38,862 bases of DNA from Candidatus Limadaptatus stercorigallinarum (GCA_018714975.1 DVMN01000059.1:1-38862); one strand, 5' to 3'. Positions 6,811 to 33,915 are shown, counted from the first letter of the stretch. The notes: generated by a model from the letters alone, not told the origin. Numbers and translations: made by a program.

Positions 6811-7607
6811 TGGCAAAACTTTACATCGTGGGCACGCCGATAGGCAATATGGGTGACCTGACCCGCCGCGCGGAGGAGACTCTGCGCGCCGCGGACGTCA
6901 TTGCCTGCGAAGATACGCGGCACAGCAGACCGTTGCTTGCGCATATAGGCGCGAAAGGACAGCTTGTGTCATATCACAAGTTTAACGAAGCGGAATGCGC
7001 GCTTAAACTTGCGGAATTTGTCGAAAACGGCAAAAACGTCGCGCTCATTACGGACGCGGGTATGCCTTCCGTGTCCGACCCCGGCGCGGAAGTCGTCGCA
7101 CTTTGCAGAAAGCGCGGGGTCAGTGTCGAAAGCGTTCCGGGACCGAGCGCCGCGACCACCGCCGTTGCGCTCGTCGGGCTGAAAAGCAGTGGGTTCGTTT
7201 TTCTCGGATTTTTGCCCGAAAAGGCGTCGGCGCGCAGGCTCGCGGTCGAACGTGCGGCGCGGGCGGGACTGCCTCTCGTCATATATGCCGCGCCTCACGA
7301 CGTGAAAAAGACGGCGGCGGAGCTCGGCGGCATACTCGGCGACCGCAAGGTTTACGCTGTGCGCGAGATGACCAAACTTCACGAGTGCGTGACGGAGAGC
7401 ACCCTGCTTTCCTTCGAGTGCGAGGAGAGAGGGGAAATCGTGCTTGTCGTGGAAGCGGGAGAGGAAGAAAACCCGATGCTCGCGCTTTCTCCCGAGGAGC
7501 ATCTTGCAGCATATCTCGACGGCGGGATGGACAAGAAGGAAGCCGTAAAGAGGGTCGCCGCGGAACGCGGGGTCCCGAAGAACGAGATTTACAGACTCAC
7601 GCTTTGA
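6810..7607 (+). CDS. rsmI: 16S rRNA (cytidine1402-2'-O)-methyltransferase
   Basis: MAKLYIVGTPIGNMGDLTRRAEETLRAADVIACEDTRHS is the hallmark RsmI N-terminus. The start overlaps the upstream stop. Confidence 0.88.
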   Translation: MAKLYIVGTPIGNMGDLTRRAEETLRAADVIACEDTRHSRPLLAHIGAKGQLVSYHKFNEAECALKLAEFVENGKNVALITDAGMPSVSDPGAEVVALCRKRGVSVESVPGPSAATTAVALVGLKSSGFVFLGFLPEKASARRLAVERAARAGLPLVIYAAPHDVKKTAAELGGILGDRKVYAVREMTKLHECVTESTLLSFECEERGEIVLVVEAGEEENPMLALSPEEHLAAYLDGGMDKKEAVKRVAAERGVPKNEIYRLTL

Positions 7608-7610
7608 GTT

Positions 7611-7637
7611 GCGCGCCGACTGCGGCGCGTTTTTGTT
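7611..7637 (+). terminator. Intrinsic terminator after rsmI
   Basis: CGCGCCG (7612-7618), loop ACTG, CGGCGCG (7623-7629), then TTTTTGTTTG. Confidence 0.75.
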
Positions 7638-7786
7638 TGAGTTTTTCTTTTAATGCCGCGCAGGAGAAGGCGTCCGCTTCGGTGAGGGTGGGTTTTCGGC
7701 ACGCTTCGGCAGCTTTCGACCGTATGCAGGAGAAGAAGCCGTTTTTCGCGGAGGGCGGAGTGTTAGCGTTGAATGCGGAGGTGGCT

Positions 7787-8929
7787 ATGCTCGGCGGAAA
7801 AACGGAAGCGCCGCGGCTCAATACGACCGTGGACGGAACGGAGATATACACAGGCAGAGGTTATGTCGGCGAACTGCCGGAGGCGGTGGCGGAATTTCTG
7901 GAAAGCGGGCGCATTCTGCTTGTGACGGACGCGGACGCGGGGAAAACGGCGGAAGAAATAAGCAAGGCGCTGAAAGGTTTCGGGTTCAGGGTGACGGAGC
8001 GGAGTGCGCGTGACGGCGGGGACGCGGACGAATGCTGCCGGCTTGTGCTCGGAGCGGGGGCTGCCGAGGCGGCGGAAGCGGCGAAAGCGGCGGCAAAAAA
8101 GCTGGACGCGGAATGCGTGCTTTTCCCGACCGTACCTTGCGAGGACGGACTTCTGAAAGGCGGCGGGGTGCGCGCGGTGTTCTTTGACGGGGAAGTGCTT
8201 GACAGATGTCCCAAGGAATGCGAGGCGGCGGGAGCGGGGTTGCTTTACGCTCTGCCCGTGCGCAGGTTCGAGGACTGTTATGCGCGCAAGATAACGGCGC
8301 GGGTCGTTACCGAAAGAAAACAGACGGAAACCGTGTGCGGGGACAGGACGGAGCTTGCGGTGCGCGTGCTGGAAAGCGGCGCGGAGTACGGCGACGGATA
8401 TGCCTGCGACAGAATGGCGGAACTGCTCGCGGGGATTGCGGAGAAAAAGGGGAAGACGCCGCGGCGGCGCGGAGAGTACGTCTTTCTGTCCGCGTGTGCG
8501 CTTGCCGTGTTCTATACGTCCTTTCTTTCGTCGCCGGCGATAGACACTCTCGTGCCCGCCGACCACGACGCGGCGCTGGACGAGATTGCGCGCCTTACCG
8601 GCAGGGAGCGCGTCAATCTTATGCAGGCGTTTGACTTTTTCGACACGGACGTTTATTTTAGAATTAATTATATTCTCGGCGAATACAGGATGGACCTGCT
8701 TGCCGAGCTGTCCGTGCAGGATATGCGCGCCGCCGAAAGGCGTTGGCGGCGCATTTACGACGACGCGGGCTATTGGCTCAAAAGCGCGGTGACCGCGCGC
8801 GACGTGCTGGATGCGATGTCCCTTGCGGGAGAGCTTTCGGGCGGTCTGCTCGGCTATGCCGCCGCGACGGGGTTTCTGTCCGTGATGACTGCCGGGACGG
8901 AGAGGGAAGAGGGCAGAAAGAGCGCCTGA
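7787..8929 (+). CDS. Hypothetical protein with a degenerate Fe-ADH/glycerol-phosphate-dehydrogenase (DHQS-like) fold
   Basis: The ORF frame is open from 7103, but the first 500 nt overlap rsmI. GGAGGT at 7777-7782 precedes ATG 7787 (ATG 7724 is an alternative start). ILLVTDADAGKTAEEISKALKGFGFRV...LVLGAGAAEAAEAAKAAAKKLDAECVLFPTVP follows the Rossmann/GGGxxxDxxK/PT layout of Fe-ADH-like enzymes. The glycine motif is degenerate and the protein contains only one His. Confidence 0.45.
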   Translation: MLGGKTEAPRLNTTVDGTEIYTGRGYVGELPEAVAEFLESGRILLVTDADAGKTAEEISKALKGFGFRVTERSARDGGDADECCRLVLGAGAAEAAEAAKAAAKKLDAECVLFPTVPCEDGLLKGGGVRAVFFDGEVLDRCPKECEAAGAGLLYALPVRRFEDCYARKITARVVTERKQTETVCGDRTELAVRVLESGAEYGDGYACDRMAELLAGIAEKKGKTPRRRGEYVFLSACALAVFYTSFLSSPAIDTLVPADHDAALDEIARLTGRERVNLMQAFDFFDTDVYFRINYILGEYRMDLLAELSVQDMRAAERRWRRIYDDAGYWLKSAVTARDVLDAMSLAGELSGGLLGYAAATGFLSVMTAGTEREEGRKSA

Positions 8930-8957
8930 CGGGCGCACCGCTCACAAAGGAAGGAAT

Positions 8958-9746
8958 ATGGCGAAAAACATCAGGGAAGTCGAACTGTTTCTGTTCGACC
9001 TCGACGGCACCGTTTACATCGGCGACAACGAAATAGAAGGTTCGTTTGCCGCAGTCAACCGCTTGCGCGAAATGGGCAAGCGCATCTGCTTTTTCACCAA
9101 CAACAGTTCCAGAATGCATACGGACTACATCGCGCGCCTGAACAATCTCGGTCTGCGCGTGTATTCCGACGAGATTTACACCAGCGGACAGGTCACCTGC
9201 GAATATCTTCTCGACAATTACCGCGGCAAAAAAGTTTATCTGCTCGGCAACGACCGTCTGCGCTCCGAATTTGAGATGTACGGCATCGAGCTCGTCGAGG
9301 ACGACCCCGACCTTGCCGTCATAGGTTTCGACACTTCTCTCACTTATGACAAACTTTACAAATTCTGCCGTTTCGTGAACGACGGACTGCCGTTTATTGC
9401 GACGCACCCCGACAATTTCTGCCCCGCGGAAGGATGCCCGATGCCCGACGTCGGGGCGATGCTTTCCGCGATAAAACTCACCGTCGGGAGGGACCCCGAC
9501 CTGGTGATGGGCAAGCCGCACCGTACGGCGGGGCAGAGGATAGCGCTGAAATACAACCTGCCGCCGCGCAAGATAGCGATGGTCGGCGACAGGCTTTACA
9601 CGGACATCGCTTTCGGCAAGAACTGCGGTTTCGTGTCCGTGCTGGTGTTGTCGGGCGAAACCACGGCGGAGGCGGCGGCGAAGTCGAAGGTGAAGCCGGA
9701 CTATATCCTGAGTGCGGTGAGAGAGATACCCGATATGCTCGTGTGA
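8958..9746 (+). CDS. HAD-IIA (NagD/AraL-like) sugar-phosphate phosphatase
   Basis: FLFDLDGTVYIGDNEIEGS (DxDGT motif I), FFTNNSS (motif II) and MVGDRLYTDIAFG (motif IV). AAGGAAGGAA precedes the ATG. Confidence 0.8.
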   Translation: MAKNIREVELFLFDLDGTVYIGDNEIEGSFAAVNRLREMGKRICFFTNNSSRMHTDYIARLNNLGLRVYSDEIYTSGQVTCEYLLDNYRGKKVYLLGNDRLRSEFEMYGIELVEDDPDLAVIGFDTSLTYDKLYKFCRFVNDGLPFIATHPDNFCPAEGCPMPDVGAMLSAIKLTVGRDPDLVMGKPHRTAGQRIALKYNLPPRKIAMVGDRLYTDIAFGKNCGFVSVLVLSGETTAEAAAKSKVKPDYILSAVREIPDMLV

Positions 9747-9756
9747 GCATATGTAT

Positions 9757-9778
9757 ATGCGCAGAAATGCGCATTTTA
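9757..9778 (+). terminator. Intrinsic terminator after the HAD gene
   Basis: ATGCGCA (9757-9763), GAAA tetraloop, TGCGCAT (9768-9774), running into TTTT. Confidence 0.55.
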
Positions 9779-9804
9779 TCATACGTTTTTGCGTGTATGA
9801 ATTC

Positions 9805-9918
9805 GCATATGTGCAAATTCGGCGGCGGCTATGTGCGCAAAGGTGCATATGCGCCCGCGGGGCGCGCGTCCTTTTTGCGGGCAGAAGCGCCAAGGACGGA
9901 AAATCTGCGCATATGCGC
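9805..9918 (+). promoter_or_regulatory. Array of GCATATG(C/T)GC palindromic boxes upstream of the symporter gene (candidate operator sites)
   Basis: GCATATGTGC at 9805-9814 and GCATATGCGC at 9845-9854. A perfect 12-nt palindrome, GCGCATATGCGC, sits at 9907-9918, 4 nt upstream of the SD AAGGAG (9923-9928). Confidence 0.35.
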
Positions 9919-9935
9919 TTGCAAGGAGATATAAG

Positions 9936-11555
9936 ATGCCCTCATTGATTTCCGCGGCGGGAGGCGAAGTCTGGCCGCAATGGCTGATTTTCGGAGTGTA
10001 TATGGCGGTCATTCTCGCCGTTGCGCTCATCACGCGCCGCAAGAGTACGAGCGTGGAAGGTTTTATGTTCGCCAACAAGGGAGTGGGCGGCTGGCTGTCC
10101 GCATTCGCTTACGGCGCGACGTACTTTTCCGCCGTGGTTTTCGTCGGATACGCGGGCAAATTCGGCTGGAATTTCGGGCTTTCCGCGGTCTGGATAGGCA
10201 TCGGGAATATGATTATCGGCACGCTTGCCGCGTGGCTGGTGCTGGCAAACAGGACCAAGGTCATGACCGCGAAACTCGGCGCTCGCACAATGCCGGAATT
10301 TTTCGAGAAAAGGTATGAGAGCAAGTATATAAAACTCTTTGCCGCCCTTACGATATTCGTGTTTTTGCTGCCTTATTCCGCGTCGGTCTATCAGGGGATG
10401 GGCTATATATTCGAGGCGGCGCTCGGCATCGACTCTATGTGGTGCATTCTGATACTCGCGGCGCTGACGGCGGCGTATCTCTTCCTCGGCGGCTATTTAG
10501 CCACCACAATCACGGACTTCATCCAGGGGCTTATAATGATTGTCGGCATTGTCGTCACGGTGTTTATGCTGCTCGACCTGCCGCAGATGAATTGGGGAGA
10601 GGGGCTCGGCGCGCTGTTTGCGGACCCCGACCTCACTCTCATTCCCAACCCCGTCACCCCCGAAGGCGGCACATTCCTCGACAATCAGCTGTTCAACATA
10701 ATCATACTCGTGTGCCTGACGTCTTTCGGTATGTGGGGTATGCCGCAGTCCATACACAAGTTTTATGCCATAAAGGACAAAGCCGCCATACGCAAAGGGG
10801 CGGTCATTTCCACGGTTTTTTCCGCGATAGTCGGCTGCGGAGCGTACTTTATGGGAAGTATGATTACGCGTTTCGTCAGCGAAGTGCCGGACGGCAACTT
10901 CGACAGGCTCGTGCCCACGATGCTGGTGGAAAATCTGCCTTCCGCATTGCTGGGGCTCATTATAGTGCTGCTGTTTTCCGCGTCTATGTCCACGCTTGCC
11001 GCGCTGTCGTTGTCTTCCAGCTCCACCGTGACCGTGGACTTTTATAAGGGCTACGTCAGAAAAACCGCTCCCGAAAGCAATCTCAACATACTGATACGCG
11101 TGCTGTGTCTGGTGTTCGTGGCGGTGTCCGCCGTGCTCGCCATAGTGGAGATAGACGCCATAGTCAGTATGATGAGCCTGAGCTGGGGCGCGATAGCGGG
11201 CTGCTTTATGGGGCCTTACGTTTACGGGCTGTACAGCAAAAAGGCGAACAAAGCGGGCGCGTACGCTTCCATAATCTTCTCGCTCCTGCTCACTTTCGCG
11301 CTCATCGTCGGGCTCGGCTATTTCTCGCTGCGCTCGGACGGGCTGGACCCCGCATTCGGAGAAGCGTTCAAGGCGGGCATAGGTCAGTCGCCTTTCATAG
11401 GCGTGGTGACGATGGCGGCGAGTATGATAGTGACACCCGTCGCGAGCCTGATATTCTCGCGCAAATGCGCGGTCAGCCGCGAACTTCTGGACTCGATTTT
11501 CCCCGCCGCGCTGCCGAAGCATCTCGTATACTCCCGCGCCGCGAAACAGGATTGA
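9936..11555 (+). CDS. Sodium:solute symporter (SSS) family transporter
   Basis: About 13 TM segments. The N-terminal region ...ITRRKSTSVEGFMFANKGVGGWLSAFAYGATYFSAVVFVGYAGKFGW is typical of PutP/PanF-type SSS proteins. AAGGAG lies 7 nt before ATG 9936. Confidence 0.8.
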   Translation: MPSLISAAGGEVWPQWLIFGVYMAVILAVALITRRKSTSVEGFMFANKGVGGWLSAFAYGATYFSAVVFVGYAGKFGWNFGLSAVWIGIGNMIIGTLAAWLVLANRTKVMTAKLGARTMPEFFEKRYESKYIKLFAALTIFVFLLPYSASVYQGMGYIFEAALGIDSMWCILILAALTAAYLFLGGYLATTITDFIQGLIMIVGIVVTVFMLLDLPQMNWGEGLGALFADPDLTLIPNPVTPEGGTFLDNQLFNIIILVCLTSFGMWGMPQSIHKFYAIKDKAAIRKGAVISTVFSAIVGCGAYFMGSMITRFVSEVPDGNFDRLVPTMLVENLPSALLGLIIVLLFSASMSTLAALSLSSSSTVTVDFYKGYVRKTAPESNLNILIRVLCLVFVAVSAVLAIVEIDAIVSMMSLSWGAIAGCFMGPYVYGLYSKKANKAGAYASIIFSLLLTFALIVGLGYFSLRSDGLDPAFGEAFKAGIGQSPFIGVVTMAASMIVTPVASLIFSRKCAVSRELLDSIFPAALPKHLVYSRAAKQD

Positions 11556-12417: not shown

Positions 12418-12447
12418 TTGACGACGCGCGCGTGTGCGACTTATAAT
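12418..12447 (+). promoter_or_regulatory. Sigma-A-type promoter placed for a leaderless or near-leaderless transcript of the five-gene operon
   Basis: TTGACG (12418-12423), 18-nt spacer, TATAAT (12442-12447). The first in-frame ATG (12454) begins 7 nt after the -10 box, and no SD lies between them. Confidence 0.5.
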
Positions 12448-12453
12448 AAAGCC

Positions 12454-13995
12454 ATGGTAAAGGAGAATGCGTCGTTTTACGATTATATGCGCACCTACCG
12501 CCCGAAGGACGGCAAGGCTGCGGCATTTATAAGAGGCAGCAGACGCATGACTTTCGGCAGGCTTTTCCGCGAGGTCGAACGCGTTGCGGGCGGGCTTGCG
12601 GCGCTCGGCATAGGCAGAGGCGACGTGGTTATGCTCGCGCTGCCCACGATAGAGCAGGGCATAGTGGCTTTTTATGCGGTTTCGCGTATCGGGGCGGTCG
12701 CGTCAATGATACATCCGCTGATGGCGAGGGGGGAATTCGACAGAGCGGTCGCAGAACAGCGGCCGAAAGCGGTTTTTCTTTCCGACATCAATTTCAGAAG
12801 ACTGGGCAAAGGGCTGAAAGGCGTGAAGAGGATTGTGTGTCCTTACGCCGCTTACGGCTATATCGGGCTTCCGCGTCCCGCGAAGTTCACGCCCTACGAA
12901 GGCGACGGGTCCGAGCCCGCGGTGTATATGCGTTCGGGCGGCACGTCGGGCGAGCCTAAGACGGTGGTGCTGTCCGCCGCGGCGGCAAACGCTCTTACGG
13001 GCAATCTGTTCACGACGCTTGCGGGCGACACTTTCGACGAACGCGACAGAATGCTCACCGCGCTGCCTATGTTCCACGGTTTCGGGCTGCTGGTCGGGCT
13101 GCACACGGTGATGTGCGTTTCCGCGGCGCCCGTGCTTATGCCCGTATTCCGCGCGGACAAGGCGGTGCGCGCCATAGCGAAGCACGGCGTCACGCTTATG
13201 ATAGCCGTGCCGGGTATGATAAACAAACTGCTCGCGCAGGAAGAATTCCGCGGCGCGAACGTGCGCACTCTGCGCCACGTCTACGTCGGCGGCGACACCG
13301 TCGACGCGGAGCTCGAAAAGCGTTTCGACGAGCGTATGAGGGAGGCGGGTACGGAGTGCGTGCTTTCACCCGGATACGGGCTCACCGAAACGGGGAGCGT
13401 GTGCGTGCTTTCTCCCGAAAAGGCGGGCGGCGCTGCGCTGGGGAAACCGCTTGCGAATATGCGCTGCCGCATAGTCGGCGAGGACGGAAAAGACGTCGCG
13501 AAGGGCGAAACGGGCGAACTGCTGCTGACGGGCAACCAGCTTATGCTGGGTTACCTCGACGACGAGGAGGGGACGCGCGCCGTGTATGCCCGCGAGGACG
13601 GCACGGACTGGCTGAAAACGGGGGATATGTTCAAGGAACTTCCCGACGGCTCGCTGTTCTTTATGGGGCGGAAAAAAAGGCTCATCAAGATATCGGGCGT
13701 CAACGTGTTCCCCGCGGAAATCGAGCGGGCGGCGGTGGAACTGCCTTTCGTCGGACCTTGCGCCGCGATAGAGGTCAGGGAGAACAACAAGCCGTTTATC
13801 GCGCTGTTTGTGACGGGTAAACTGTCCGATGAGCAAATAAAGACTGTGAAGAAACATATCGTGGACCAACTTTCCAAGTGGCACGAACCGAAATACGTTT
13901 TGTGCGTGGACGCGCTTCCGCGCACGCAGATAGGAAAAACGGACTATGTGAGGTTGAGCGATGAATTTGAACAAAATCGCAAAAAAAGTTCATAA
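12454..13995 (+). CDS. AMP-forming acyl-CoA synthetase / fatty-acid ligase family protein
   Basis: YMRSGGTSGEPKTVVLS (AMP-binding P-loop-like motif), GYGLTETG, WLKTGD, GRKKRLIKISGVNVFPAEIE and a C-terminal GKTDY lysine. Confidence 0.85.
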   Translation: MVKENASFYDYMRTYRPKDGKAAAFIRGSRRMTFGRLFREVERVAGGLAALGIGRGDVVMLALPTIEQGIVAFYAVSRIGAVASMIHPLMARGEFDRAVAEQRPKAVFLSDINFRRLGKGLKGVKRIVCPYAAYGYIGLPRPAKFTPYEGDGSEPAVYMRSGGTSGEPKTVVLSAAAANALTGNLFTTLAGDTFDERDRMLTALPMFHGFGLLVGLHTVMCVSAAPVLMPVFRADKAVRAIAKHGVTLMIAVPGMINKLLAQEEFRGANVRTLRHVYVGGDTVDAELEKRFDERMREAGTECVLSPGYGLTETGSVCVLSPEKAGGAALGKPLANMRCRIVGEDGKDVAKGETGELLLTGNQLMLGYLDDEEGTRAVYAREDGTDWLKTGDMFKELPDGSLFFMGRKKRLIKISGVNVFPAEIERAAVELPFVGPCAAIEVRENNKPFIALFVTGKLSDEQIKTVKKHIVDQLSKWHEPKYVLCVDALPRTQIGKTDYVRLSDEFEQNRKKSS

Positions 13996-15697
13996 GATAG
14001 CCCCCTCCGTAAAGGTGGAGGAGTACCGCGGCTGCGTGAGGCTGACAGGGGAGCTCGACAGCTGGGACGCGATATACCGCTGCGGCGTCGCCGCGGTGAG
14101 CAAGAAGTTCCTCGGAGTGCTGAACGACATCCGTCTGAAAGGCTTCCGCGAGGAGATGAAGGTGCCTTCGCTGCGCGACGGAGCGCTTGAAGGCAGGACC
14201 CCCGACGTGATGATTATAGGCGGCGGAATAATGGGCTGTTCGCTTGCGCGCGAGCTTTCCAGACTGGACATCGACGTGCTGATGGTGGACAAAGCCAACG
14301 ACGTCGCGACGGGTGCGTCGTCCAGAAACGACGGCTGCATACACCCCGGCATAGACCTGCACAAGGGACAGCTCAAACTGCATTACGTCCTGCGCGGCAA
14401 CGCGATGTACTCCAAGCTGTGCGAGGAGCTGGGGTGCGACTTCGAACGCTGGGCGCAGACGTTTATGTTCAGCACGAAGTGGGAGAGATACATAATCGCG
14501 CCGCTTATGCTGCTCAAAGGCAAGCTGCTCGGCGTGCCCGATATGAGTTTCAAGTCGCCCGCGGAGATGAAAAAAATCGAACCTCATCCGCCGAAGTGGC
14601 TGACGGGGGCGGTGTATATGGCGTCCGCAGGCGTGGTGTCGCCTTACAAGGTCACAATCGCGCTGGCGGAGAATGCGGCGGAAAACGGCGCGCAGATTTC
14701 GCTCAATACCGTGGTCGAGGGGATGGATGTCAGGGACGGCGTCGTCACCGCCGTGCACACCAACCGCGGCACGGTGCGTCCGAAGATAGTCGTCAACGCG
14801 GCGGGCGCGTACAGCGACGTAATCGCGGAGATGGCGGGGGACAGGACTTTCACCATTCACCCGCGCAAGGGCACGGACCTCATTCTCGACAAGAAGAAGG
14901 CGTACTACGCCGTGTCGTCCTTTGCGCGCAGTTATTTCGCGCCGCTGCCCAAAGAGGCGCAGGAGCAGACGCACGCGGCGGTGGGTCACACCAAAGGCGG
15001 CGGCGTAATGCGCACCGTGGACGGCAACATTCTCGTCGGACCCAACGCGGTGGAGCAGCCGTACCGCGAGGACACTTCCACCAATCTGGACGACGTAATG
15101 GCGATAATCAGGAAGCAGAAGGTCGCGGCGGACGAGCTTTCCACCGCCGACATCATCACTTATTTCGCGGGAGTGCGCGCGGCGACGTACGAAGAGGATT
15201 TCGTTGTGCGCAAGGGCATTTTCACAAAGAACGTCATCGAAACCGCGGGCATACAGTCGCCGGGCATAACGGCGGCTCCCGCGATTGCGTGCGACGTGCG
15301 TGCGTGGGTCAAGGAAATGCTGGGCGCGAAGGACAGGAAGGATTTCAATCCCGTGCGCAAGCACACGCCCAAACTTGCCGACCTTACGGAAGCGGAGCGC
15401 GAGGAGTTCGTGAAGCGCAATCCCGCTTACGGCGAAATCGTATGCAGATGTGAAGAAGTGAGCAAAGGAGAAATCGTCGACGCGCTGGAATCCCCCCTCA
15501 AAGTCTGCACCGTGGACGGCATTAAGCGCCGTGTGCGCCCGGGTATGGGCAGATGTCAGGGCGGGTTCTGTTCGCCTCTCGTCATCAAAATCATCGCCGA
15601 GCACGAGGGCATAGCGCCCGAAGACGTGCTCAAAGGGGACGAGGGCAGCGTGATACTTTACGGAGATACGAAGAAAGCGGCGGAGGGCAAGGAATGA
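13961..15697 (+). CDS. FAD-dependent glycerol-3-phosphate dehydrogenase-like oxidoreductase (GlpA-like) with an N-terminal BON-like segment and a C-terminal BFD-type [2Fe-2S] module
   Basis: VMIIGGGIMGCSLARELS...ATGASSRNDGCIHPG (DAO-type FAD fold) and CRCEEVSKGEIV...GMGRCQGGFC (BFD-like). N-terminal VKVEEYRGCVRLTGELDSWD...GVLNDIRLK is BON-like. Overlaps the upstream gene by 35 nt. ATG 14156 is an alternative start that would remove the BON-like part. Confidence 0.75.
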   Translation: MNLNKIAKKVHKIAPSVKVEEYRGCVRLTGELDSWDAIYRCGVAAVSKKFLGVLNDIRLKGFREEMKVPSLRDGALEGRTPDVMIIGGGIMGCSLARELSRLDIDVLMVDKANDVATGASSRNDGCIHPGIDLHKGQLKLHYVLRGNAMYSKLCEELGCDFERWAQTFMFSTKWERYIIAPLMLLKGKLLGVPDMSFKSPAEMKKIEPHPPKWLTGAVYMASAGVVSPYKVTIALAENAAENGAQISLNTVVEGMDVRDGVVTAVHTNRGTVRPKIVVNAAGAYSDVIAEMAGDRTFTIHPRKGTDLILDKKKAYYAVSSFARSYFAPLPKEAQEQTHAAVGHTKGGGVMRTVDGNILVGPNAVEQPYREDTSTNLDDVMAIIRKQKVAADELSTADIITYFAGVRAATYEEDFVVRKGIFTKNVIETAGIQSPGITAAPAIACDVRAWVKEMLGAKDRKDFNPVRKHTPKLADLTEAEREEFVKRNPAYGEIVCRCEEVSKGEIVDALESPLKVCTVDGIKRRVRPGMGRCQGGFCSPLVIKIIAEHEGIAPEDVLKGDEGSVILYGDTKKAAEGKE

Positions 15698-16941
15698 AGA
15701 ATTACGACGTTGTGGTCATAGGCGGCGGTCCTGCGGGGCTTGCCGCGGCGGAGAGCGCGTGCAAGGCGGGCGCGAAAACCGCGGTTCTCGAAAGGGAAGC
15801 GAGGCTGGGCGGCATACTCAAACAGTGCGTGCACGACGGTTTCGGACTGATACGCTTCGGCGAGAAACTTGCAGGACCGGAGTATGCGGAAAGGTATATA
15901 GATTTCGTGAAAGCCCTTCCCATCGACGCGTATACGCTCACTTTCGTGACGAAACTCGAAAAGAAGGCGGACGGCTTTGCCATCACCTGCGTGAGCCGCG
16001 AAGGTATGCTGGATTTCACCGCAAAGGCAATAGTCCTCGCCACGGGCTGCCGCGAAAGGACGGCGAAACAGGTGCTCATCCAGGGCACCCGTCCCGCGGG
16101 CGTTTTCACGGCGGGCACGGCGCAGAATTTCGTCAACCTGATGGGCAAAATGCCCGCGAAAAAGTGCGTCATACTCGGCAGCGGCGACATAGGGCTCATT
16201 ATGGCGCGTCGCCTTACGCTGGAAGGCGCGGAGGTCGAGGGCGTGTACGAAGTCAAGCCCGAACCCAGCGGACTGACCAGAAACATACATCAGTGCCTGC
16301 ACGACTTTGACATCCCCCTCCACCTTTCGCACACCGTCACCCGCGTGTTCGGCGCGGACAGGCTGACTGCCGTCGAAGTCGCAAAGGTGGATGACAAGAT
16401 GAAACCCGTCAAGGGCACGGAGAGGATAATCGAGTGCGATGCGCTCATCCTTTCCGTCGGACTCATCCCCGAAAACGAGCTTGCCGAAAGCCTCGGCGTG
16501 AAGATAAATCCCTTCACGAAAGGTCCCGACTGCGACCAGACGTATATGAGTTCCGTGGACGGAGTGTTCTCCGCGGGCAACGCGCTCAACGTGTTCGACC
16601 TTGTGGACTACGTTTCGGAATGCGCCGCGGACGCGGGCGCGAATGCGGCGAAATTCTTGCCGTCTTCCTCTTGCGTCAGGCTGGAAAGAGGGCAGGGACT
16701 GCTCTCGTATGTGCCTCACCGCATAGACCTCGGCAAGCCGCAGGACAAGGTTGTGTTCTTCTTCCGTTCCGCGAAGGATATGGACCGCGGCACTCTGCGC
16801 ATTCTCGCGGACGGCAAAGAAGTTTACAAGAAGAAGTTCTCCTTCCTGCGTCCGCCCGAAATGCAGAGAGTGGAGATAGATTTCTCCGCATTCGGACTGA
16901 ACGCGAAGAGCAAACTCACCGTCGAATTGGAGGAAAACTGA
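15694..16941 (+). CDS. NAD(P)/FAD-dependent oxidoreductase (second subunit of the clostridial-type GlpA-like set)
   Basis: MKNYDVVVIGGGPAGLAAAESA (GxGxxG), a second dinucleotide fold CVILGSGDIGLIMA, and ATGA start/stop overlap with the upstream gene. Confidence 0.8.
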   Translation: MKNYDVVVIGGGPAGLAAAESACKAGAKTAVLEREARLGGILKQCVHDGFGLIRFGEKLAGPEYAERYIDFVKALPIDAYTLTFVTKLEKKADGFAITCVSREGMLDFTAKAIVLATGCRERTAKQVLIQGTRPAGVFTAGTAQNFVNLMGKMPAKKCVILGSGDIGLIMARRLTLEGAEVEGVYEVKPEPSGLTRNIHQCLHDFDIPLHLSHTVTRVFGADRLTAVEVAKVDDKMKPVKGTERIIECDALILSVGLIPENELAESLGVKINPFTKGPDCDQTYMSSVDGVFSAGNALNVFDLVDYVSECAADAGANAAKFLPSSSCVRLERGQGLLSYVPHRIDLGKPQDKVVFFFRSAKDMDRGTLRILADGKEVYKKKFSFLRPPEMQRVEIDFSAFGLNAKSKLTVELEEN

Positions 16942-17276
16942 TGGAACTGGTATGTATCGTATGTCCGAAAGGATGCAGAATGACAGTCGAAAACGGCGTC
17001 GTGACGGGCAACACCTGTAAAAAGGGAGAGGCGTTCGCAAAAGCGGAAGCGACCTGCCCGATGCGTACGGTGTGCAGCACAGTCGCCACCGCTTTCGCCG
17101 GTATGCCCGTGCTGCCCGTGCGCACGGACGGCGAAATCCCGAAGAGCAAGATAGGGGAACTGATGCAACTGATAAACGGCATCAGAGTCACGGAAAAATT
17201 GCACCGCGGCGACGTCGTCGCGGCTTCCGTGGTGGGGACGGACGTCAACCTCATCGCCACGGCAACCATATATTGA
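16941..17276 (+). CDS. DUF1667 domain-containing protein (small Cys-rich subunit)
   Basis: MELVCIVCPKGCRMTVENGVVTGNTCKKGEAF is the typical DUF1667 N-terminus. The start shares one base with the upstream TGA. Confidence 0.8.
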   Translation: MELVCIVCPKGCRMTVENGVVTGNTCKKGEAFAKAEATCPMRTVCSTVATAFAGMPVLPVRTDGEIPKSKIGELMQLINGIRVTEKLHRGDVVAASVVGTDVNLIATATIY

Positions 17277-17298
17277 GCGCAAGTTAAAGGAGAAGATT

Positions 17299-19035
17299 AT
17301 GTCTAACAAACCCTACAAAGATTTCGAGCCCAAGTGGATTACCGACCCGCCCGTCGAAAAGAGCTACCGTTCCATTATGAAATGGGGCGACCCCGCGGCT
17401 TACAAACGCCCGAAAGAGGGGCTGTACAAGCTCATCAAACAGACTTTCAACCTCACCGACGACGATTTCAAGGAAATGGTGGACGTCGGCAACGAAGTCG
17501 TGGATTTCAAGGCGCCGTCCCGTCTTACGGACGCACAGCTCGACGAGCTGCGCTCCATAGTGGGCGAGGACAACGTCACCACGGACGAGTTCAAACGCAC
17601 GCAGGTCTGCTACGGCAAGACTATGATTGACATTATGAGGCTGAGGAAGGGCATTGTTGAAAACCTGCCCGACGTCGTCGTCTATCCTTCCACTACGGAG
17701 GATATGGAAAAGCTCATAGCGTTCTCAAAGAAGCACAAAGTGTATCTTTACGTCTATGCGGGCGGCAGCAGCGTCACGCGCGGCACCGAGTGTATGTGCT
17801 CGCCGAATATGATTCTGGACCTCAGAAAGAATTTCAACAAGGTCATAGCTTTCAACGAGGTCAACCAGACCATCACCGTCCAGCCCGGTATCAGCGGACC
17901 CGAACTCGAAAAGATACTCAACAACGCGCCCGAAAACTTCGGCGCGGCGCACCGTCTCACCTGCGGGCATTTCCCGCAGTCGTTCGAGTACAGCTGCGTG
18001 GGCGGCTGGGTGGTCACCCGCGGCAGCGGTCAGAACTCGACCTACTACGGCTGCGCGGCGGACCTGGTGCTTTGCCAGGAATACGTCACCCCGATAGGCA
18101 GGATACGCACCGACTCCGCGCCCAGAAAAGCGACCGGTCCCAACATCGACCAAATTATGATGGGCAGCGAGGGAACATACGGCATTCTGACCGAAGTGAC
18201 GCTTAAAGTGTTCAAAAAGTCCGCTAAACACCGCAAATTCTCGTATATGTTCCCCACTTGGGAGGACGGTATGGCGGCAATGCGCGAGGTGATGCAGGGC
18301 GAATTCGGCTATCCTTCCGTGTTCAGACTCTCCGACGCGGAAGAGACGGATATGATGATGCATATGTACGGCATAGCCGACAGCCCGCTCAACGCTTTGC
18401 TCGCTGCGAAAGGCTTCAAGCCCAGCCAGAGATGTCTGCTGCTCGGCTTTGCGGACGGCGAGGACGGCTTGCAGCGCAACATAGTCAAGAATGTCCGCAA
18501 AATCGCCCACAAGTACAACGCGATGTCCCTTACGGGTTACGTCACCACGTCCTGGGAGCACGGCAGGTTCTCCGACCCCTATATGCGCGACACCATTCAG
18601 GACTACGGCATCATCATCGACACGCTGGAATGCGCGGTCAACTGGGACAATATGGCGCAGGTGCACCGCGACGTGCGCAAGGCTGTCAAGGCGTGGCCCA
18701 ACGCAATCTGCACCACGCACATCTCCCACAGCTATCCGCAGGGCGCCAACCTTTACTTCATTTTCGTCATAAAGACGACCGACCTCGAAGAGTTCAAGCG
18801 CTATCATTCCACAATCCTCGAAGCCATAATGAAATCCGGCGCGGCGCTGTCGCACCATCACGGAATAGGCAAGCTCTTCGCGCCCTTCCTCGAAGGCTCG
18901 ATAGGCACGGAACAGCTCAACGTTTACAAGGCGCTGAAACACTATTTCGACCCCGACGGGCTACTCAATGCGGGCGGCACGCTCGCGCTTGACGGCAAGC
19001 TGAACGTGGAAGGTCAATTCCGTTCCGACAAGTAA
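17299..19035 (+). CDS. FAD-linked (PCMH-type) oxidase resembling alkyldihydroxyacetonephosphate synthase (AGPS)
   Basis: AAAGGAG precedes ATG 17299. FAD-binding segment VVYPSTTEDMEKLIAFSKKHKVYLYVYAGGSSVTRG, an N-terminal extension with IMKWGD, and SHHHGIGK (HHH codons 18853-18861) as in the AGPS His-His-His loop rather than the EHGxG of GlcD/D-LDH. Confidence 0.65.
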   Translation: MSNKPYKDFEPKWITDPPVEKSYRSIMKWGDPAAYKRPKEGLYKLIKQTFNLTDDDFKEMVDVGNEVVDFKAPSRLTDAQLDELRSIVGEDNVTTDEFKRTQVCYGKTMIDIMRLRKGIVENLPDVVVYPSTTEDMEKLIAFSKKHKVYLYVYAGGSSVTRGTECMCSPNMILDLRKNFNKVIAFNEVNQTITVQPGISGPELEKILNNAPENFGAAHRLTCGHFPQSFEYSCVGGWVVTRGSGQNSTYYGCAADLVLCQEYVTPIGRIRTDSAPRKATGPNIDQIMMGSEGTYGILTEVTLKVFKKSAKHRKFSYMFPTWEDGMAAMREVMQGEFGYPSVFRLSDAEETDMMMHMYGIADSPLNALLAAKGFKPSQRCLLLGFADGEDGLQRNIVKNVRKIAHKYNAMSLTGYVTTSWEHGRFSDPYMRDTIQDYGIIIDTLECAVNWDNMAQVHRDVRKAVKAWPNAICTTHISHSYPQGANLYFIFVIKTTDLEEFKRYHSTILEAIMKSGAALSHHHGIGKLFAPFLEGSIGTEQLNVYKALKHYFDPDGLLNAGGTLALDGKLNVEGQFRSDK

Positions 19036-19055
19036 TCACGCCTTACGAAAGGCAG

Positions 19056-19086
19056 AAGGACGCGGTGCGCCGCGTCCTTTTCTTTT
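19056..19086 (+). terminator. Intrinsic terminator closing the five-gene operon
   Basis: AAGGACGCGG (19056-19065), loop TGCG, CCGCGTCCTT (19070-19079), then TTCTTTT. Confidence 0.8.
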
Positions 19087-23468: not shown

Positions 23469-26400
23469 TCATTCGTTGAAGTTGTCGTAATCGTTCTTCT
23501 TCTTGTTGACGTTGGACGCGGACACGTTGTCCGTGGGTTCGTCCGTGGTCTTCTTGGTGAACTTCTTCTTGTACTTCCTCACATAGAACACCACCACGAC
23601 CGCTATAATGGCAAGTCCGATGACTATGGTCGGAATCATCCACCACAGGTTGTCGAGGTTGAAGGTGGCGGAAGGCACGTCGGTGTTGTCGTCGTCGCCG
23701 TCCGTCGCTCCCTGTTCGCCCTCTTCGGGGATGGTGTAGTTGAGATAGGTGCCGTAGCCCTCTTCGCCTTCGCCGGGCATCGCTTCGACCGCTTCGTTGT
23801 AGTCGTTCACGTCGCCGATGACTTCGATGGTGACCGCGTCGAAGAACGCATAGCCGCTGACGAGTTTGCTTTCGTCGTCCGCGTCATAAATGCCGAGTCC
23901 GAGGCGCACCGACACGTCCGTCACGTCCGTGGAGGGAGCGAGGATATAGAAAGTGTATTCGCTCCAACCGTCGCCCGTGTTGATGTTCTCGAAACGCAGA
24001 GGTTCGGCGTCGTCGCTGTCGGAAGAGCCGAGATATATCTCGATGTAGGCGCCGCGGTCGTCCGCCGCCGTGAACACGTTGTCGTCGCCGACGTGACCTA
24101 TGCCGTAAGTGAACACGCGGACGCTTATCTTGTAGGCGACTTCCGCGGTCAGGGTATATCCGTCGGAGCCGTAGCGGTACGCGCTGTCCAGCATATTGTT
24201 GATGACGAGCACGTTGTCGCCGTCGACGAAACCTTCGGGGAAGACGTCGAGCGGGAGCATCCTGTCGGCTATCGCCCGCGCGAGTTTGGCTTCCTTTATC
24301 GCGTTGGTTGCGGCGAGGATATTCGCTTCGGAGTCGTCGCCGCCGAAGTTGTCGCGGATATATTCGTCGATTTCGGCGTCTGTCGCCGTGAAGTCGTCCG
24401 CGGTGAGTTCGGGACCGAGGCCGACGATATAGTCGCCGTCGGTGGAGAAGTCGCTCGTGTCAAGCACGCCCGCGTTGGTGTTGTCGCGGTCCTGGTCGGT
24501 GCCGACGGAGCTGGTCCAGCCGTTGGGAGAGGTGAGGTCGGTGGTGTCTTCCTCTTCGTCGTCGGTGGAGGTGCTTTCCTCCATCGTGTCGAAGCTGTCG
24601 GTGAAGAAGGAGATTCTCTTCACTTCCTCATACGGTTCGCCGTTGTAGGCGGCGGGGGTGTAGTCTTCGATTTCCTGTTCCGTAAGACCTTCGTGCATCG
24701 TGACGGAGTCGAAGAGGACTATGCCCGTCGAAGTGACCTCATCCTGTCCGGTTATGCCGGAGTTCTGCCCCAGCCACAGACCGAGGCGCAGGGAAACGTC
24801 GGTGAGACCGACCTCGATGTTGAAGGTGTATTTATGCCACTCGCCGTCGCCCGTGAACGCGAAGTAGAGAGTGTCGCCCTCCTCGCCGTCCACGAGGGAG
24901 CCGGACGCTTCGCCTTGCAGGAATATCATTCCCTTCGTGCCGGTCTCCGCTTTCGCCCACACGCTTACGGAGTAGTTGGTGGAGGCGGAAAGAGTGAAGC
25001 TGTCGGAGAGATAGCCCGCCGCAAAGTCCGCGCCGTTTTTGCCTGCAATGGCAAGCAAAGAGGGAGCGCCTTGCGCTTCAACGGGGGAGTTGGCGTAAAT
25101 GTTGTTGAAGAAATCGGTGTAGCTGTCGCCGAAGAGGGCGTCTGTCTGAGGGCTGCCGCCCCAGCTGCCCGCGCCTTTTTCTTCGAGTCTGATGACGCCG
25201 CCGACAAAGTCCGCATTGTCTTTCAGGCTGCTGTTGCTCAGGGTCCAGCTTTCGGGCACGCCTGCGACGTCGCCGCCTTGCAGAGTGCCGTCGCCCGCGG
25301 TTATCGCGTCTTCCATTTCGTCGAAGTCGACGTTGTCGAAAGAGCCGTTGTCAAAGGAGCCGCTCACGGAGGTGGAGAGGTCGGATTTGGCGATATAAGT
25401 GCCCGCCGTCGCGTCCGAGAAGTCGGAGTAGGTGACGTCAATCATACTCATATTCGCAAAGTACGCCGCGCCGCTCGCAAGCGTGGAGGACTCCCATCTC
25501 GTGCCGGAGCCGAGTGCGAATTCCAGCCACACTTTCGTCGTCCCTTCGCCGGAGCCTTTGATGTAGAAGGTGTATTCGGACCAGCCGTTGTAGGTTTCCA
25601 CTTCCGCGGTGTTGACCGCCGTGAAGGAGGAAAGCGTCGTTTCGCCGGACTCGTTTTCTTCGTCCTCGTAGGATTTCAGATACAGATACGCGCCGGAGGT
25701 GTCTTTCACGCCGTCCGTCTTCACCCATACGCTTATGGCGTACGCCCTGTTCGCCTTTATCTCGATGATGTCGGACTTCATCGTGAACGCGGTATCCTGC
25801 GTCGCGCGTATCATAAGCCCGGTGTTTGCGACGGTGTCATAGGGCAGACCGGGGGCGGTAAGACCGCGAGAGGTGAAGTAATCCTCCGCGTCGAGATAGA
25901 CCGTGCCCGCGGTGACCATATCGGGAGTCGCCACGGGGGCGTCGGTGTCGTCGTCCTCCGCAGCTTTATGTTCCCATCCCGAAGGAGTGCCTTCCGTGTC
26001 GCCCGCGAATTCGTCGCTGCTGCCGCTGCCGGTGCGGAAATCGCCGAAAATGGTGCCGTGCGTATTGTCGCCGCCGTCGTCGGTCATAAAGTAGCTGTCG
26101 GAAGAGAGGTCGACGGAAATTGCGGTGTAGTCCGTGCCGCTGACGTCGACGGAATAGCCGCCGTCTTTGCTCACGGCAGTGCCCGCGCCCTCGACGGCTT
26201 CGTCGTACGCACCCTGGTCCGCAAACTCGGTGAGCTTCACGTCATCGAAGAAAGCCCAGCCGGAAGAGAAGGTGCCGTCCGCAGTGTAAGTGGTGCGCGA
26301 AGTGCCCGTCGCGGAAGTGGAAGAGTAATAGGTGTAGGTGGCTTTCGTGTTGTCTTCCGCGTCACCCGTGCCCAGCCACAGCGTCAGATTGTAGGACATA

Positions 26401-29160: not shown

Positions 29161-29222
29161 TTATAAGAAAAGCGCGGCTATGCGCTTGTTTGTGCTACGT
29201 TCACACCACAGGAGAGAAAGAC

Positions 29223-30536
29223 TTGACGTTTTTCGGCAAAACCTTCCGCAGGGGAACTCATCCGCCTGCGCGTAAAATCACGGCGGATATGCCCCTCGCC
29301 GAGTTCGATGCCCCCGAAAGGCTTTATTTTGCGTTGGCGCAGCATATAGGCGCGCCTGCGCAGCCTGTCGTTTCGGAGGGCGAACGCGTGCTCGCCGGGC
29401 AGCTCATCGCGGAAGCGGCGGGCTACGTTTCCGCCCGCGTGCATTCTTCGGTGTCCGGTACGGTGGCGGGGATTAAGGAACTGCCCACCGCAACGGGCGG
29501 GAAATGCAGGCATATCGAGATTATCAACGACTTTGCGTACGAGAGCGTTTCCCTTCCCCCTCTCGCCGACCCGTCGGCGGAAGAGATAATCGCGAGGGTC
29601 AGGGAGTGCGGCATAATCGGTATGGGCGGCGCGGGATTCCCCACGCACGTCAAGCTCGTGCCGAAAAACGCCGTCGACACGCTCGTCCTGAACGGCGCGG
29701 AGTGCGAACCGTACATCACCTGCGACTGCCGTCTTATGACGGAGCGCGCGGCGGAAGTCGTGCGCGGTGCGGAGCTGCTTATGACCGCGCTCGGCGCAGG
29801 ACGTACGCTCATCGGAGTGGAGGCGAACAAGAAAGAGGCGTTCGCCGCGCTTTCCGAGGCGTGCGCGGGGAATGCGGCGGTGACGCCCGTGCTTCTTCGC
29901 ACCAAGTATCCGCAGGGCGCGGAGAAACAGCTGGTGTTTGCGCTCACCCGCAGACAGGTGCCGCCGGGAGGACTTCCCGCCGACGTCGGCTGCGTGGTGG
30001 ACAACGTGCACACCGCATACGCCGTCGCGAGAGCGGTGGACAAGGGCGAGCCGCTGTATATGCGTGCCGTGACGGTCAGCGGAGGCGCCGCGGGAGTGCG
30101 CGGCAACTTTATGATGAGGACGGGCATACCGTTTTCCTTTGTGCGGGAAAGGACGCGCGGCGAAACGTCCGACGACGACGTCGCGAAGGTTATAAACGGC
30201 GGACCTATGATGGGCTTCGCACAGGCGGGGCTGGACGCGTGCGTCACGAAAGGGACGTCGTCCGTGCTGTTTATGGACGGCAGGGAAGCCGCTATGCGTG
30301 AGCCGACGCAGTGCATCAACTGCGGCAGGTGCATCAGGCAGTGCCCGATGAAACTTATGCCGCGCGACATAGAAAAAGCGGTGCTGTCGGGCGACTTCGC
30401 AAGGACGGAAGAGCTGTTTGTCGCAAGCTGTATGGAATGCGGGGTGTGCTCGTACGTCTGTCCCGCGAAACGACCTTTGGTGCAGGCGATACGCCTTGCC
30501 AAAAAGACGCTGAAAGAAGGGAGGGCAGGCAAATGA
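29223..30536 (+). CDS. rnfC: Rnf electron-transport complex subunit C
   Basis: FGKTFRRGTHPP (the FKGG(I/V)HP-like N-terminus), GIIGMGGAGFPTHVK, and two 4Fe-4S motifs CINCGRCIRQCP and CMECGVCSYVCP. I prefer TTG 29223 as the start, with AGGAGAG upstream. Confidence 0.9.
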   Translation: MTFFGKTFRRGTHPPARKITADMPLAEFDAPERLYFALAQHIGAPAQPVVSEGERVLAGQLIAEAAGYVSARVHSSVSGTVAGIKELPTATGGKCRHIEIINDFAYESVSLPPLADPSAEEIIARVRECGIIGMGGAGFPTHVKLVPKNAVDTLVLNGAECEPYITCDCRLMTERAAEVVRGAELLMTALGAGRTLIGVEANKKEAFAALSEACAGNAAVTPVLLRTKYPQGAEKQLVFALTRRQVPPGGLPADVGCVVDNVHTAYAVARAVDKGEPLYMRAVTVSGGAAGVRGNFMMRTGIPFSFVRERTRGETSDDDVAKVINGGPMMGFAQAGLDACVTKGTSSVLFMDGREAAMREPTQCINCGRCIRQCPMKLMPRDIEKAVLSGDFARTEELFVASCMECGVCSYVCPAKRPLVQAIRLAKKTLKEGRAGK

Positions 30537-33903: not shown

Positions 33904-33915
33904 GGAGGTGAGAAG

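Follow-up and report, generated by a model that had tools for sequence, protein, structure and literature searches.

The operon considered here raises the question of what an enzyme of the alkyl-dihydroxyacetonephosphate synthase (AGPS) family does beside a glycerol-3-phosphate (G3P) dehydrogenase-like complex in an anaerobic bacterium. It lies at 12418-19086 of a 38,862-nucleotide (nt) stretch of DNA from Candidatus Limadaptatus stercorigallinarum (GCA_018714975.1 DVMN01000059.1:1-38862; the whole stretch is called the window below), and consists of five closely packed plus-strand open reading frames (ORF1 to ORF5) bracketed by a near-consensus promoter and a hairpin terminator. ORF1 encodes an AMP-forming ligase, ORF2 to ORF4 a dehydrogenase trio, and ORF5 the AGPS-family flavoenzyme. 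An earlier reading of the window (the original prediction) combined these proteins into a partial route for ether-lipid synthesis. Our analysis points in another direction: with a probability of roughly 40%, the operon is one version of a gene module for the oxygen-independent breakdown or remodelling of 1-O-alkylglycerol-type ethers.

The two Pfam domains of ORF5, FAD_binding_4 and FAD-oxidase_C, are the pair found in AGPS (also ADPS, EC 2.5.1.26) of Dictyostelium, mammals and Myxococcus xanthus (MXAN_1676). A phmmer search of the PDB retrieved the Dictyostelium and guinea-pig (Cavia) AGPS enzymes at E-values of 7.8e-67 and 1.4e-60 (229 and 209 bits); glycolate oxidases and lactate dehydrogenases (LDH) scored at most 73 bits (1.6e-19 or weaker) and aligned over the FAD domain only. 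ORF5 shares 30-31% identity with the two AGPS enzymes of solved structure, which share 34% with one another. Comparison of predicted structure gave the same picture, as the top 37 Foldseek matches in the PDB to an AlphaFold2 model of ORF5 (pLDDT 80.5) are all AGPS (TM scores of 0.70-0.79, up to 550 columns), with D-lactate dehydrogenases next at a TM score of about 0.62. The phmmer alignment runs from residue 80 onwards, and the structural alignments cover up to 550 of the 578 residues and so take in the N-terminal region, where AGPS has an extra domain with a gate-keeping helix. Sequence, catalytic residues and predicted fold thus agree that ORF5 belongs to the AGPS family and not to the GlcD/D-lactate dehydrogenases, which is what the original prediction had proposed from its motifs. 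Assignment as GlcD/LDH was considered and rejected, the glcD model TIGR00387 giving 120 bits against a cut-off of 568, with the motifs and the fold also against it.

The active site of ORF5 resembles that of the characterized enzymes. In AGPS chemistry the substrate is enolised and forms an adduct with flavin N5, the C1-oxygen substituent then leaves and a new nucleophile comes in; mutagenesis has shown that R352, R447 and Y508 of the Dictyostelium enzyme matter (R419 and Y578 in Cavia) (PMC3509576). These three residues and the His-His-His (HHH) loop (Cavia 615-617) correspond in ORF5 to R343 (codon 18325-18327), R430 (18586-18588), Y486 (18754-18756) and H519-521, so that both the catalytic arginines and the tyrosine are present. 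The HHH codons lie at 18853-18861, exactly where they had been placed previously. The whole set is invariant or at least 90% conserved in 38 members of the ORF5 clade, and at least 94% conserved over 114 superfamily sequences. Because these residues are kept, it is likely that ORF5 retains AGPS-type chemistry. The AlphaFold model has low confidence at 520-524 (the HHH loop) and at 234-242 and 276-290 (loops beside the conserved GGW/TRG motifs), segments that may be mobile active-site loops.

In a full scan for the family, covering 1.8 billion cluster representatives, 819 clusters reached E <=1e-30. The relationships within the family were drawn from a neighbour-joining tree of 114 sequences, which is distance-based, crude and without support values. 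In this tree ORF5 and its Clostridia relatives share a branch with an environmental group of 46% identity, adjoined by a sister clade of 35-43% identity. The AGPS enzymes of Dictyostelium and Cavia fall among the large group of other sequences, on a different major branch from both clades. As far as so crude a tree can place it, ORF5 is therefore on a separate, deep bacterial branch and is not nested among the proven AGPS enzymes. The closest genome is that of Candidatus Limadaptatus stercoravium, a member of the Clostridia from chicken gut, whose ORF5 homologue is 91% identical.

The proteins encoded immediately before ORF5 make up the three-gene, G3P-dehydrogenase-like set that had already been recognised in the original prediction. 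Its order is GlpTk-NOX-DUF1667. This is the composition of the ‘GlpTk’ G3P dehydrogenase complex of Thermococcus, Thermotoga and C. perfringens (preprint, bioRxiv 10.1101/2024.02.29.582781), and the window has the same genes in the same order (DAO, Pyr_redox_2 ‘NOX’, DUF1667 ‘MOX’) as T. kodakarensis (TK1393/NOX/DUF1667), T. maritima and C. perfringens. ORF2 matches DAO (9.3e-57) and Fer2_BFD (1.9e-10; 2Fe-2S cysteines Cys495, 497, 532 and 537), ORF3 matches Pyr_redox_2 (3.3e-29) and ORF4 matches DUF1667 (5.6e-26; Cys5, 8, 12 and 26). The best NCBIfam model for ORF2 is the type 2 G3P oxidase (192 bits, under the 460-bit cut-off) and its best PDB match is Mycoplasma pneumoniae GlpO (4x9m, 6.6e-30); the PDB search found no solved relative of ORF4. 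Three differences set the module apart from the GlpTk complex. Its DAO subunit carries an additional N-terminal segment of about 75 amino acids (13961-14185 in ORF2), which is present in 63/63 aligned module homologues, poorly conserved and without a Pfam match. Its trio is linked to an AGPS-like gene and a non-GlpK kinase rather than to glpK/glpF, and neither GlpK nor GlpF is found among the window genes. Finally, its substrate may be a 1-substituted G3P instead of G3P. A 10-residue insertion in ORF2 (residues 329-338, 14945-14974) is peculiar to the lineage of the window.

Given this resemblance, the operon might be an ordinary glycerol or G3P catabolic operon, in which ORF5 either serves as redox partner or is a 2-hydroxyacid dehydrogenase, unrelated to AGPS, that happens to look like it. 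The trio is the described G3P-oxidation set, and the VAO/PCMH fold of ORF5 is common to LctD and GlcD. We nevertheless regard this explanation as very improbable, as the scores of ORF5 against AGPS far exceed those against LDH or GlcD and it has HHH where, according to the original prediction, GlcD-type enzymes have EHG. Moreover, the kinase that accompanies the module in related genomes is not GlpK, and the trio is replaceable by a GlpD-type enzyme, so ORF5 is not bound to the electron path of the trio.

Both of these last points emerged from comparison of gene neighbourhoods. Taking one genome per species, at least 582 relatives were found in Bacillota, and the best-scoring 80, a non-random sample, were examined by tblastn and clustering of ORFs. 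The DAO, NOX and DUF1667 genes lie directly upstream of the AGPS-like gene, on the same strand, in 66/66 loci with enough upstream sequence, and DUF1667 occurs in all 79 of the 79 evaluable related loci. The partnership of trio and AGPS-like gene is thus obligate in these best 80 species-level genomes. The five-gene order of the window is less general: its trio-AGPS core recurs throughout, but a ligase stands upstream in only 9/56 evaluable loci, all in the lineage of the window (L004-L015), where it mostly overlaps ORF2 as it does here, and a kinase of the FGGY family is often inserted. This kinase gene is found between DUF1667 and the AGPS-like gene, or just downstream, in 51/69 loci, and there is none in the window, which carries a lineage-specific version of the module that has gained a ligase and lost the kinase. 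The same clostridial-type operon was also met on contigs labelled Escherichia coli, Corallococcus, Hallerella, Lentisphaeria, Anaeroplasmataceae and Acholeplasmatales (L071, L073, L074, L078, L013 and L020), labels that are probably binning or labelling errors.

In Bacteroidota, Spirochaetota and the environmental clade, the trio gives way to a different dehydrogenase. In the sister clade, for which eight contexts were available (Bacteroidota, Spirochaetota and others), a GlpD-type dehydrogenase (DAO + DAO_C) occupies the position immediately before the AGPS-like gene in seven of the eight; it shares no more than 22-25% identity with ORF2. In the Bacteroidota loci the kinase follows downstream. 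Bacteroidota and Bacillota kinases are 43-47% identical, and identity among the Bacillota kinases themselves is only 47-51%, from which it appears that one orthologous FGGY kinase subfamily accompanies the AGPS-like gene across phyla. The environmental clade was sampled through the best 80 of at least 470 matches, again a non-random set, all of them metagenome loci. Among these, GlpD-type genes occur in 36, a FadR-like regulator cluster in 30 and the kinase in 25; where at least 2.5 kb is available on both sides (27 loci), a GlpD-type gene is present in 17 and a dehydrogenase and/or kinase in 20. Two unrelated dehydrogenase families for the same reaction, each joined to an AGPS-like gene, together with one orthologous kinase that accompanies this gene across phyla, are the signature of a pathway and not of a particular protein complex. 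It follows from this non-orthologous replacement that what is conserved is a chemical step, the oxidation of a 2-hydroxyl next to CH2-O-P, and not a given electron-transfer complex.

Several individual loci depart from these patterns. On one environmental contig (L145:5515-13141) a single AGPS-like gene is preceded by genes for a FadR-like regulator and a GlpD-type dehydrogenase and followed by the DAO-NOX-DUF1667 trio, a layout that could represent an intermediate between the two module types. In sample Ga0272440 (L127-L129, L138, L140, L143, L144, L146 and L150) a group of AGPS-like genes is flanked by two conserved ORFs of about 490 and 550 amino acids without a Pfam match and by a PNP_UDP_1 phosphorylase, with no recognisable dehydrogenase or kinase; the environmental cluster c5/c6 had no Pfam match. 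A Deltaproteobacterial relative (L086:1-8382), 43% identical to ORF5, is accompanied by genes for two ANL ligases, for a HAD hydrolase and for a radical-SAM protein. Neither a dehydrogenase nor a kinase adjoins it, and the setting has a more biosynthetic look.

These observations enabled us to propose a model for the module. The presence of a dedicated kinase implies that the entry substrate is an unphosphorylated glycerol derivative, and a dedicated kinase and dehydrogenase would be needed together only if that derivative were something other than plain glycerol or G3P. In a catabolic setting, AGPS chemistry would be justified only by an ether or a similarly non-hydrolysable bond at C1. It is plausible, then, that the kinase, where present, acts on a glycerol substituted at sn-1, for which a 1-O-alkylglycerol is the most plausible candidate, and phosphorylates its free primary hydroxyl, after which the dehydrogenase (in the window, the DAO/BFD-Pyr_redox_2-DUF1667 trio) would oxidise C2 to give a 1-substituted dihydroxyacetone phosphate. 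The AGPS-like enzyme would enolise this product at C1, form the covalent flavin-N5 adduct and expel the C1-oxygen substituent, with water (or a fatty acid) taking its place, to yield a fatty alcohol and dihydroxyacetone phosphate (DHAP) (or acyl-DHAP). The net effect would be to dismantle or remodel a glyceryl ether without O2 and to regain the glycerol backbone for glycolysis. Since the window has no kinase, its substrate would have to arrive already phosphorylated, and its ligase would handle a carboxylic acid that stems from the side chain or is exchanged with it. Within this scheme, what the substrate is, which way the reaction runs, that water is the acceptor and what the ligase does are all inferred.

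Ending at DHAP, kinase, dehydrogenase and AGPS-like enzyme are complete as a catabolic route; as a biosynthetic route the same three enzymes are incomplete, a reductase and a source of fatty alcohol being wanting. Hints as to the side chain come from the more variable neighbours. In Bacillota a TetR regulator lies near the module in 24/56 loci and a GntR/UTRA (HutC-like) regulator in 3/56, and an aldehyde:ferredoxin oxidoreductase occurs in six loci, in at least two of which a ferredoxin gene separates it from the AGPS-like gene. Sister-clade loci of Spirochaetota type have a GntR regulator with a FadR_C-type domain (54-61 bits), to which the FadR-like cluster of the environmental clade is homologous, and one of them (L088) encodes a FadL/TodX outer-membrane channel. 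No transporter recurs in about 170 loci. The TetR and FadR_C-type regulators, the FadL/TodX channel, the independently recruited ANL ligases, the aldehyde:ferredoxin oxidoreductase with its ferredoxin and the lack of a conserved transporter together hint at a hydrophobic side chain, or at one of acid or alcohol character. A second FadL-like protein, in L084, proved not to be homologous to the L088 channel. Other neighbours are uninformative as to substrate: HAD, phosphoribosyltransferase and TrkAH genes in metagenome-assembled genomes from rabbit gut, and two-component systems, Fic and CobW.

The kinase also lends itself to a different catabolic interpretation, in which the substrate is a non-lipid 1-substituted glycerol or polyol, such as lipoprotein-derived S-glycerylcysteine, 2,3-dihydroxypropanesulfonate, or a tetritol or pentitol treated in the manner of erythritol. 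Here too the kinase would act first and the GlpD-like oxidation second, leaving the AGPS-like enzyme to expel the substituent of the carbon beside the ketone, or to exchange it. In erythritol catabolism EryA and EryB are an FGGY kinase and a GlpD-like dehydrogenase, and the later steps are carried out by isomerases. The first two steps of the module, phosphorylation of a terminal hydroxyl and flavin-dependent oxidation of the neighbouring secondary alcohol, follow this pattern. The models nearest to the module kinase are xylulokinase and autoinducer-2 (AI-2) kinase, the GntR/UTRA-type regulators mentioned above occur in some loci, and pyridoxal phosphate enzymes of cysteine-synthase fold adjoin the module in four. 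However, the lack of a recurring transporter is unusual for a polar substrate, polyol routes rely on isomerases or aldolases and not on AGPS chemistry, the third enzyme here being of the AGPS family where an isomerase would be expected, and the ligases, aldehyde:ferredoxin oxidoreductase, FadR/TetR regulators and FadL point to acids, alcohols and hydrophobic molecules. We therefore think a polar substrate unlikely, if a serious contender. As for the kinase itself, assignments as GlpK (148-165 bits against a 590-bit cut-off) and as XylB (under the cut-off) were rejected, and no close relative was found in the PDB.

A more direct challenge to ether breakdown is that the same enzymes could run towards synthesis independently of a DHAP acyltransferase (GNPAT). 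In this alternative, the dehydrogenase would make 1-acyl-DHAP from lysophosphatidate (1-acyl-G3P, the product of PlsY) and the AGPS-like enzyme would swap in a fatty alcohol to give 1-alkyl-DHAP, the reductase being encoded elsewhere and fatty-alcohol formation being fed by the ligase (in certain relatives by the aldehyde:ferredoxin oxidoreductase instead). Such a route would account for the conserved AGPS catalytic set and fold, for the ever-adjacent G3P-type dehydrogenase and for the failure to see a DHAP acyltransferase. It fits the recurrence of ligases and aldehyde:ferredoxin oxidoreductase beside the module, the ligase-plus, kinase-minus state of the window and the lipid-biosynthetic appearance of the Deltaproteobacterial cluster. 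Conversely, it leaves the conserved orthologous kinase without a role, and neither an alkyl-DHAP reductase nor a fatty-acyl reductase (FAR) recurs in the loci. Furthermore, older labelling work in the anaerobes studied, which may or may not carry the module, excluded DHAP and long-chain alcohols as plasmalogen precursors (PMC9702350). On balance, synthesis of this kind seems to us a minority possibility.

Several considerations weigh against ether breakdown itself. Synthesis is the sole function ever shown for the AGPS family, and a reverse or hydrolytic AGPS reaction belongs to older enzymology. FGGY kinases are not known for lipophilic substrates. The window and its closest relatives are kinase-less and carry a translationally coupled ligase, an arrangement that suits biosynthesis at least as well; regulators of the TetR and FadR types control lipid biosynthesis too; and the Deltaproteobacterial locus lacks the dehydrogenase and has its two ANL ligases, HAD and radical-SAM genes instead. 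In addition, the synteny samples are the best 80 of at least 582 and the best 80 of at least 470 and not random draws, and the absence of GNPAT and FAR was judged on the sampled loci, that of PlsA/PlsR and Ger on the window. The model further supposes that AGPS can use water as acceptor, that ether hydrolysis is mildly favourable and that FGGY kinases could accept alkylglycerol-type substrates.

The route set out in the original prediction differs from all of these. It envisaged a partial, de novo pathway like that of peroxisomes or myxobacteria, with the trio converting G3P to DHAP, the ligase supplying acyl-CoA, GNPAT and FAR encoded elsewhere, and ORF5 acting as a true AGPS. The resemblance of ORF5 to AGPS and the translational coupling of ligase to trio in nine related genomes are in keeping with it, as is the presence of acyl-CoA synthetase and HAD functions in the ether-lipid operons of M. 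xanthus (PMC13012113). Its logic found no support in wider comparison. DHAP is a glycolytic intermediate that requires no dedicated supply, 47/56 modules have no ligase, the FGGY kinase of 51/69 loci is neither explained nor required by the route, and the ORF5 clade falls outside the branch of proven AGPS enzymes. In a search of about 250 related loci from three phyla, and not of whole genomes, neither GNPAT-like nor FAR-like genes were seen to recur. The gene partners of the ORF5 family are a G3P-type dehydrogenase and an FGGY kinase, whereas those of M. xanthus AGPS are of GNPAT/FAR type (PMC13012113). The original prediction had itself noted that neither a DHAP acyltransferase nor a fatty-acyl reductase is visible in the window, the remainder of which is housekeeping, and its caveats, that the pathway is incomplete here and that the enzyme may act on another substrate, were apt. 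As a whole we consider this route distinctly improbable.

Its premise of fatty-acid activation deserves separate comment. ORF1 is an AMP-forming ligase by Pfam (AMP-binding at 3.8e-66, with AMP-binding_C), as had been claimed, but the fatty-acid substrate that went with the claim did not find the same backing: ORF1 reaches no NCBIfam equivalog cut-off, the top model being PRK06187 with 235 bits against 476. Since its nearest solved relatives are 4-coumarate-CoA ligase (1.7e-40) and FadD13 (1.2e-33), fatty-acid activation by ORF1 should be treated as an assumption. Identification as a FadD-type long-chain fatty acyl-CoA synthetase was rejected, ORF1 lying below every equivalog or subfamily cut-off, which leaves membership of the ANL superfamily.

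Animal tissue, the diet, anaerobic bacteria and sediments are all rich in ether lipids. Alkylglycerol monooxygenase (AGMO) is described in reviews as the sole known enzyme that cleaves alkylglycerol ethers (PMC7911779, PMC9192799), and because it needs oxygen, the question arises how anaerobic communities turn such lipids over. If ether breakdown is the correct reading, the module does the same net job as AGMO, removal of a 1-O-alkyl chain, with unrelated sequence, fold and chemistry: AGMO is a membrane di-iron enzyme that requires O2 and tetrahydrobiopterin and takes unphosphorylated alkylglycerol. The ORF5 family, unlike the known AGPS enzymes, occurs in strict anaerobes. The anaerobic ether-lipid enzymes PlsA/PlsR and Ger are found in the same kinds of organism and concern the same class of lipid bond, but they act on complete phospholipids, in which they reduce an ester already present, have no homology to the operon proteins and are not encoded in the window. 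It is possible, if somewhat against the odds, that a three-step pathway of alkylglycerol kinase, 1-alkyl-G3P dehydrogenase and AGPS-type flavin ‘etherase’ converts saturated glyceryl ethers to DHAP and fatty alcohol without oxygen or pterin in at least three phyla (Bacillota, Bacteroidota and Spirochaetota). Such a pathway would give AGMO its first enzymatic alternative and would be a case of AGPS chemistry run degradatively.

With its occurrence in at least 582 species-level genomes and on many metagenome contigs, the module offers a concrete candidate of three soluble-looking enzymes. Its carriers include the cultured Extibacter muris, Emergencia timonensis, Brassicibacter mesophilus and Caloranaerobacter ferrireducens. 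Should it be biosynthetic instead, it would constitute an ether-lipid route in gut Clostridia that is independent of DHAP acyltransferase, with a bearing on signalling by bacterial lipids and on the interpretation of biomarkers; alkyl glycerol ethers of the non-isoprenoid kind serve as environmental biomarkers because they are specific and stable during diagenesis (PMC5552659). Either way, automatic names such as ‘alkyldihydroxyacetonephosphate synthase’ and ‘FAD-binding oxidoreductase’ mask a conserved, unexplained pathway. Bacterial AGPS homologues are mentioned in passing in the literature and used as search queries, and JGI names these proteins AGPS. In the searchable literature, which excludes subscription journals, we found no link between AGPS-like proteins and a G3P-type dehydrogenase or FGGY kinase, and no report of anaerobic alkylglycerol cleavage.

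The features of the operon are collected in the table. The ORF coordinates confirm the packing first described for it (overlaps of 35, 4 and 1 nt, then a 22-nt gap with AAAGGAG), and the TTGACG-18-TATAAT promoter and 10-bp-stem terminator that were said to enclose the genes are likewise in place.

Table. Features of the operon in the window, with positions counted from the first nucleotide of the window.
Feature	Position	Strand	Remarks
Sigma-70-type promoter, TTGACG-18 nt-TATAAT	12418-12447	+	11/12 consensus positions; best promoter-like site within 11.5-19.8 kb
ORF1, AMP-forming acyl/aryl-CoA ligase, ANL superfamily, 513 aa	12454-13995	+	Alternative in-frame ATG at 12487
ORF2, FAD dehydrogenase subunit, glycerol-3-phosphate-oxidase type, C-terminal BFD-like 2Fe-2S domain	13961-15697	+	35-nt overlap with ORF1
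ORF3, Pyr_redox_2 flavoprotein, NOX-like trio subunit	15694-16941	+	ATGA overlap with ORF2, 4 nt
ORF4, DUF1667 small Cys-rich subunit	16941-17276	+	1-nt overlap with ORF3
Ribosome-binding site AAAGGAG in 22-nt ORF4-ORF5 spacer	17286-17292	+	6 nt before ORF5 ATG; read from the sequence
ORF5, AGPS-family flavoenzyme, 578 aa	17299-19035	+	Sequence, catalytic residues, predicted fold
Intrinsic terminator	19056-19086	+	10-bp stem 19056-19065/19070-19079, TGCG loop, T-run; read from the sequence

Both promoter hexamers are kept in the closest relative (locus L004). The -10 box ends only 7 nt ahead of the first in-frame ATG of ORF1, with the same arrangement in L004, and the ORF1 mRNA may therefore be leaderless, starting at 12454; an AAGGAG at 12460-12465 falls within ORF1. 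At the other end of the operon, a simple terminator scanner reported the inner 5 bp of the stem alone (19064-19076).

The genes that flank the operon are unrelated to it, a minus-strand M23 peptidase upstream and a MurC-like ligase downstream, and the rest of the window holds housekeeping genes (ribosomal proteins, an Rnf operon, Ppx, Maf and MreB) and no lipid genes. Beyond the M23 peptidase, at 7604-11555, lie a divergent Fe-ADH_2-like gene (glycerol/G1P dehydrogenase fold), a NagD-type HAD phosphatase and a sodium:solute symporter. The Fe-ADH_2 match is weak in the window and reaches 48.6 bits in the L018 homologue. These genes recur in part near other copies of the module (Fe-ADH_2-like in L005, L007, L009, L014 and L018; HAD in L007, L014 and L018; symporter in L004, L005, L007 and L015), and a functional tie to it is possible. 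At 23469-27953, on the minus strand, a 1494-residue ORF whose sole family signal is a weak CBM_4_9 match probably encodes a large surface protein. Finally, a complete Rnf gene set (RnfCDGEAB-like) at 29190-34740 marks the organism as a ferredoxin-dependent anaerobe.

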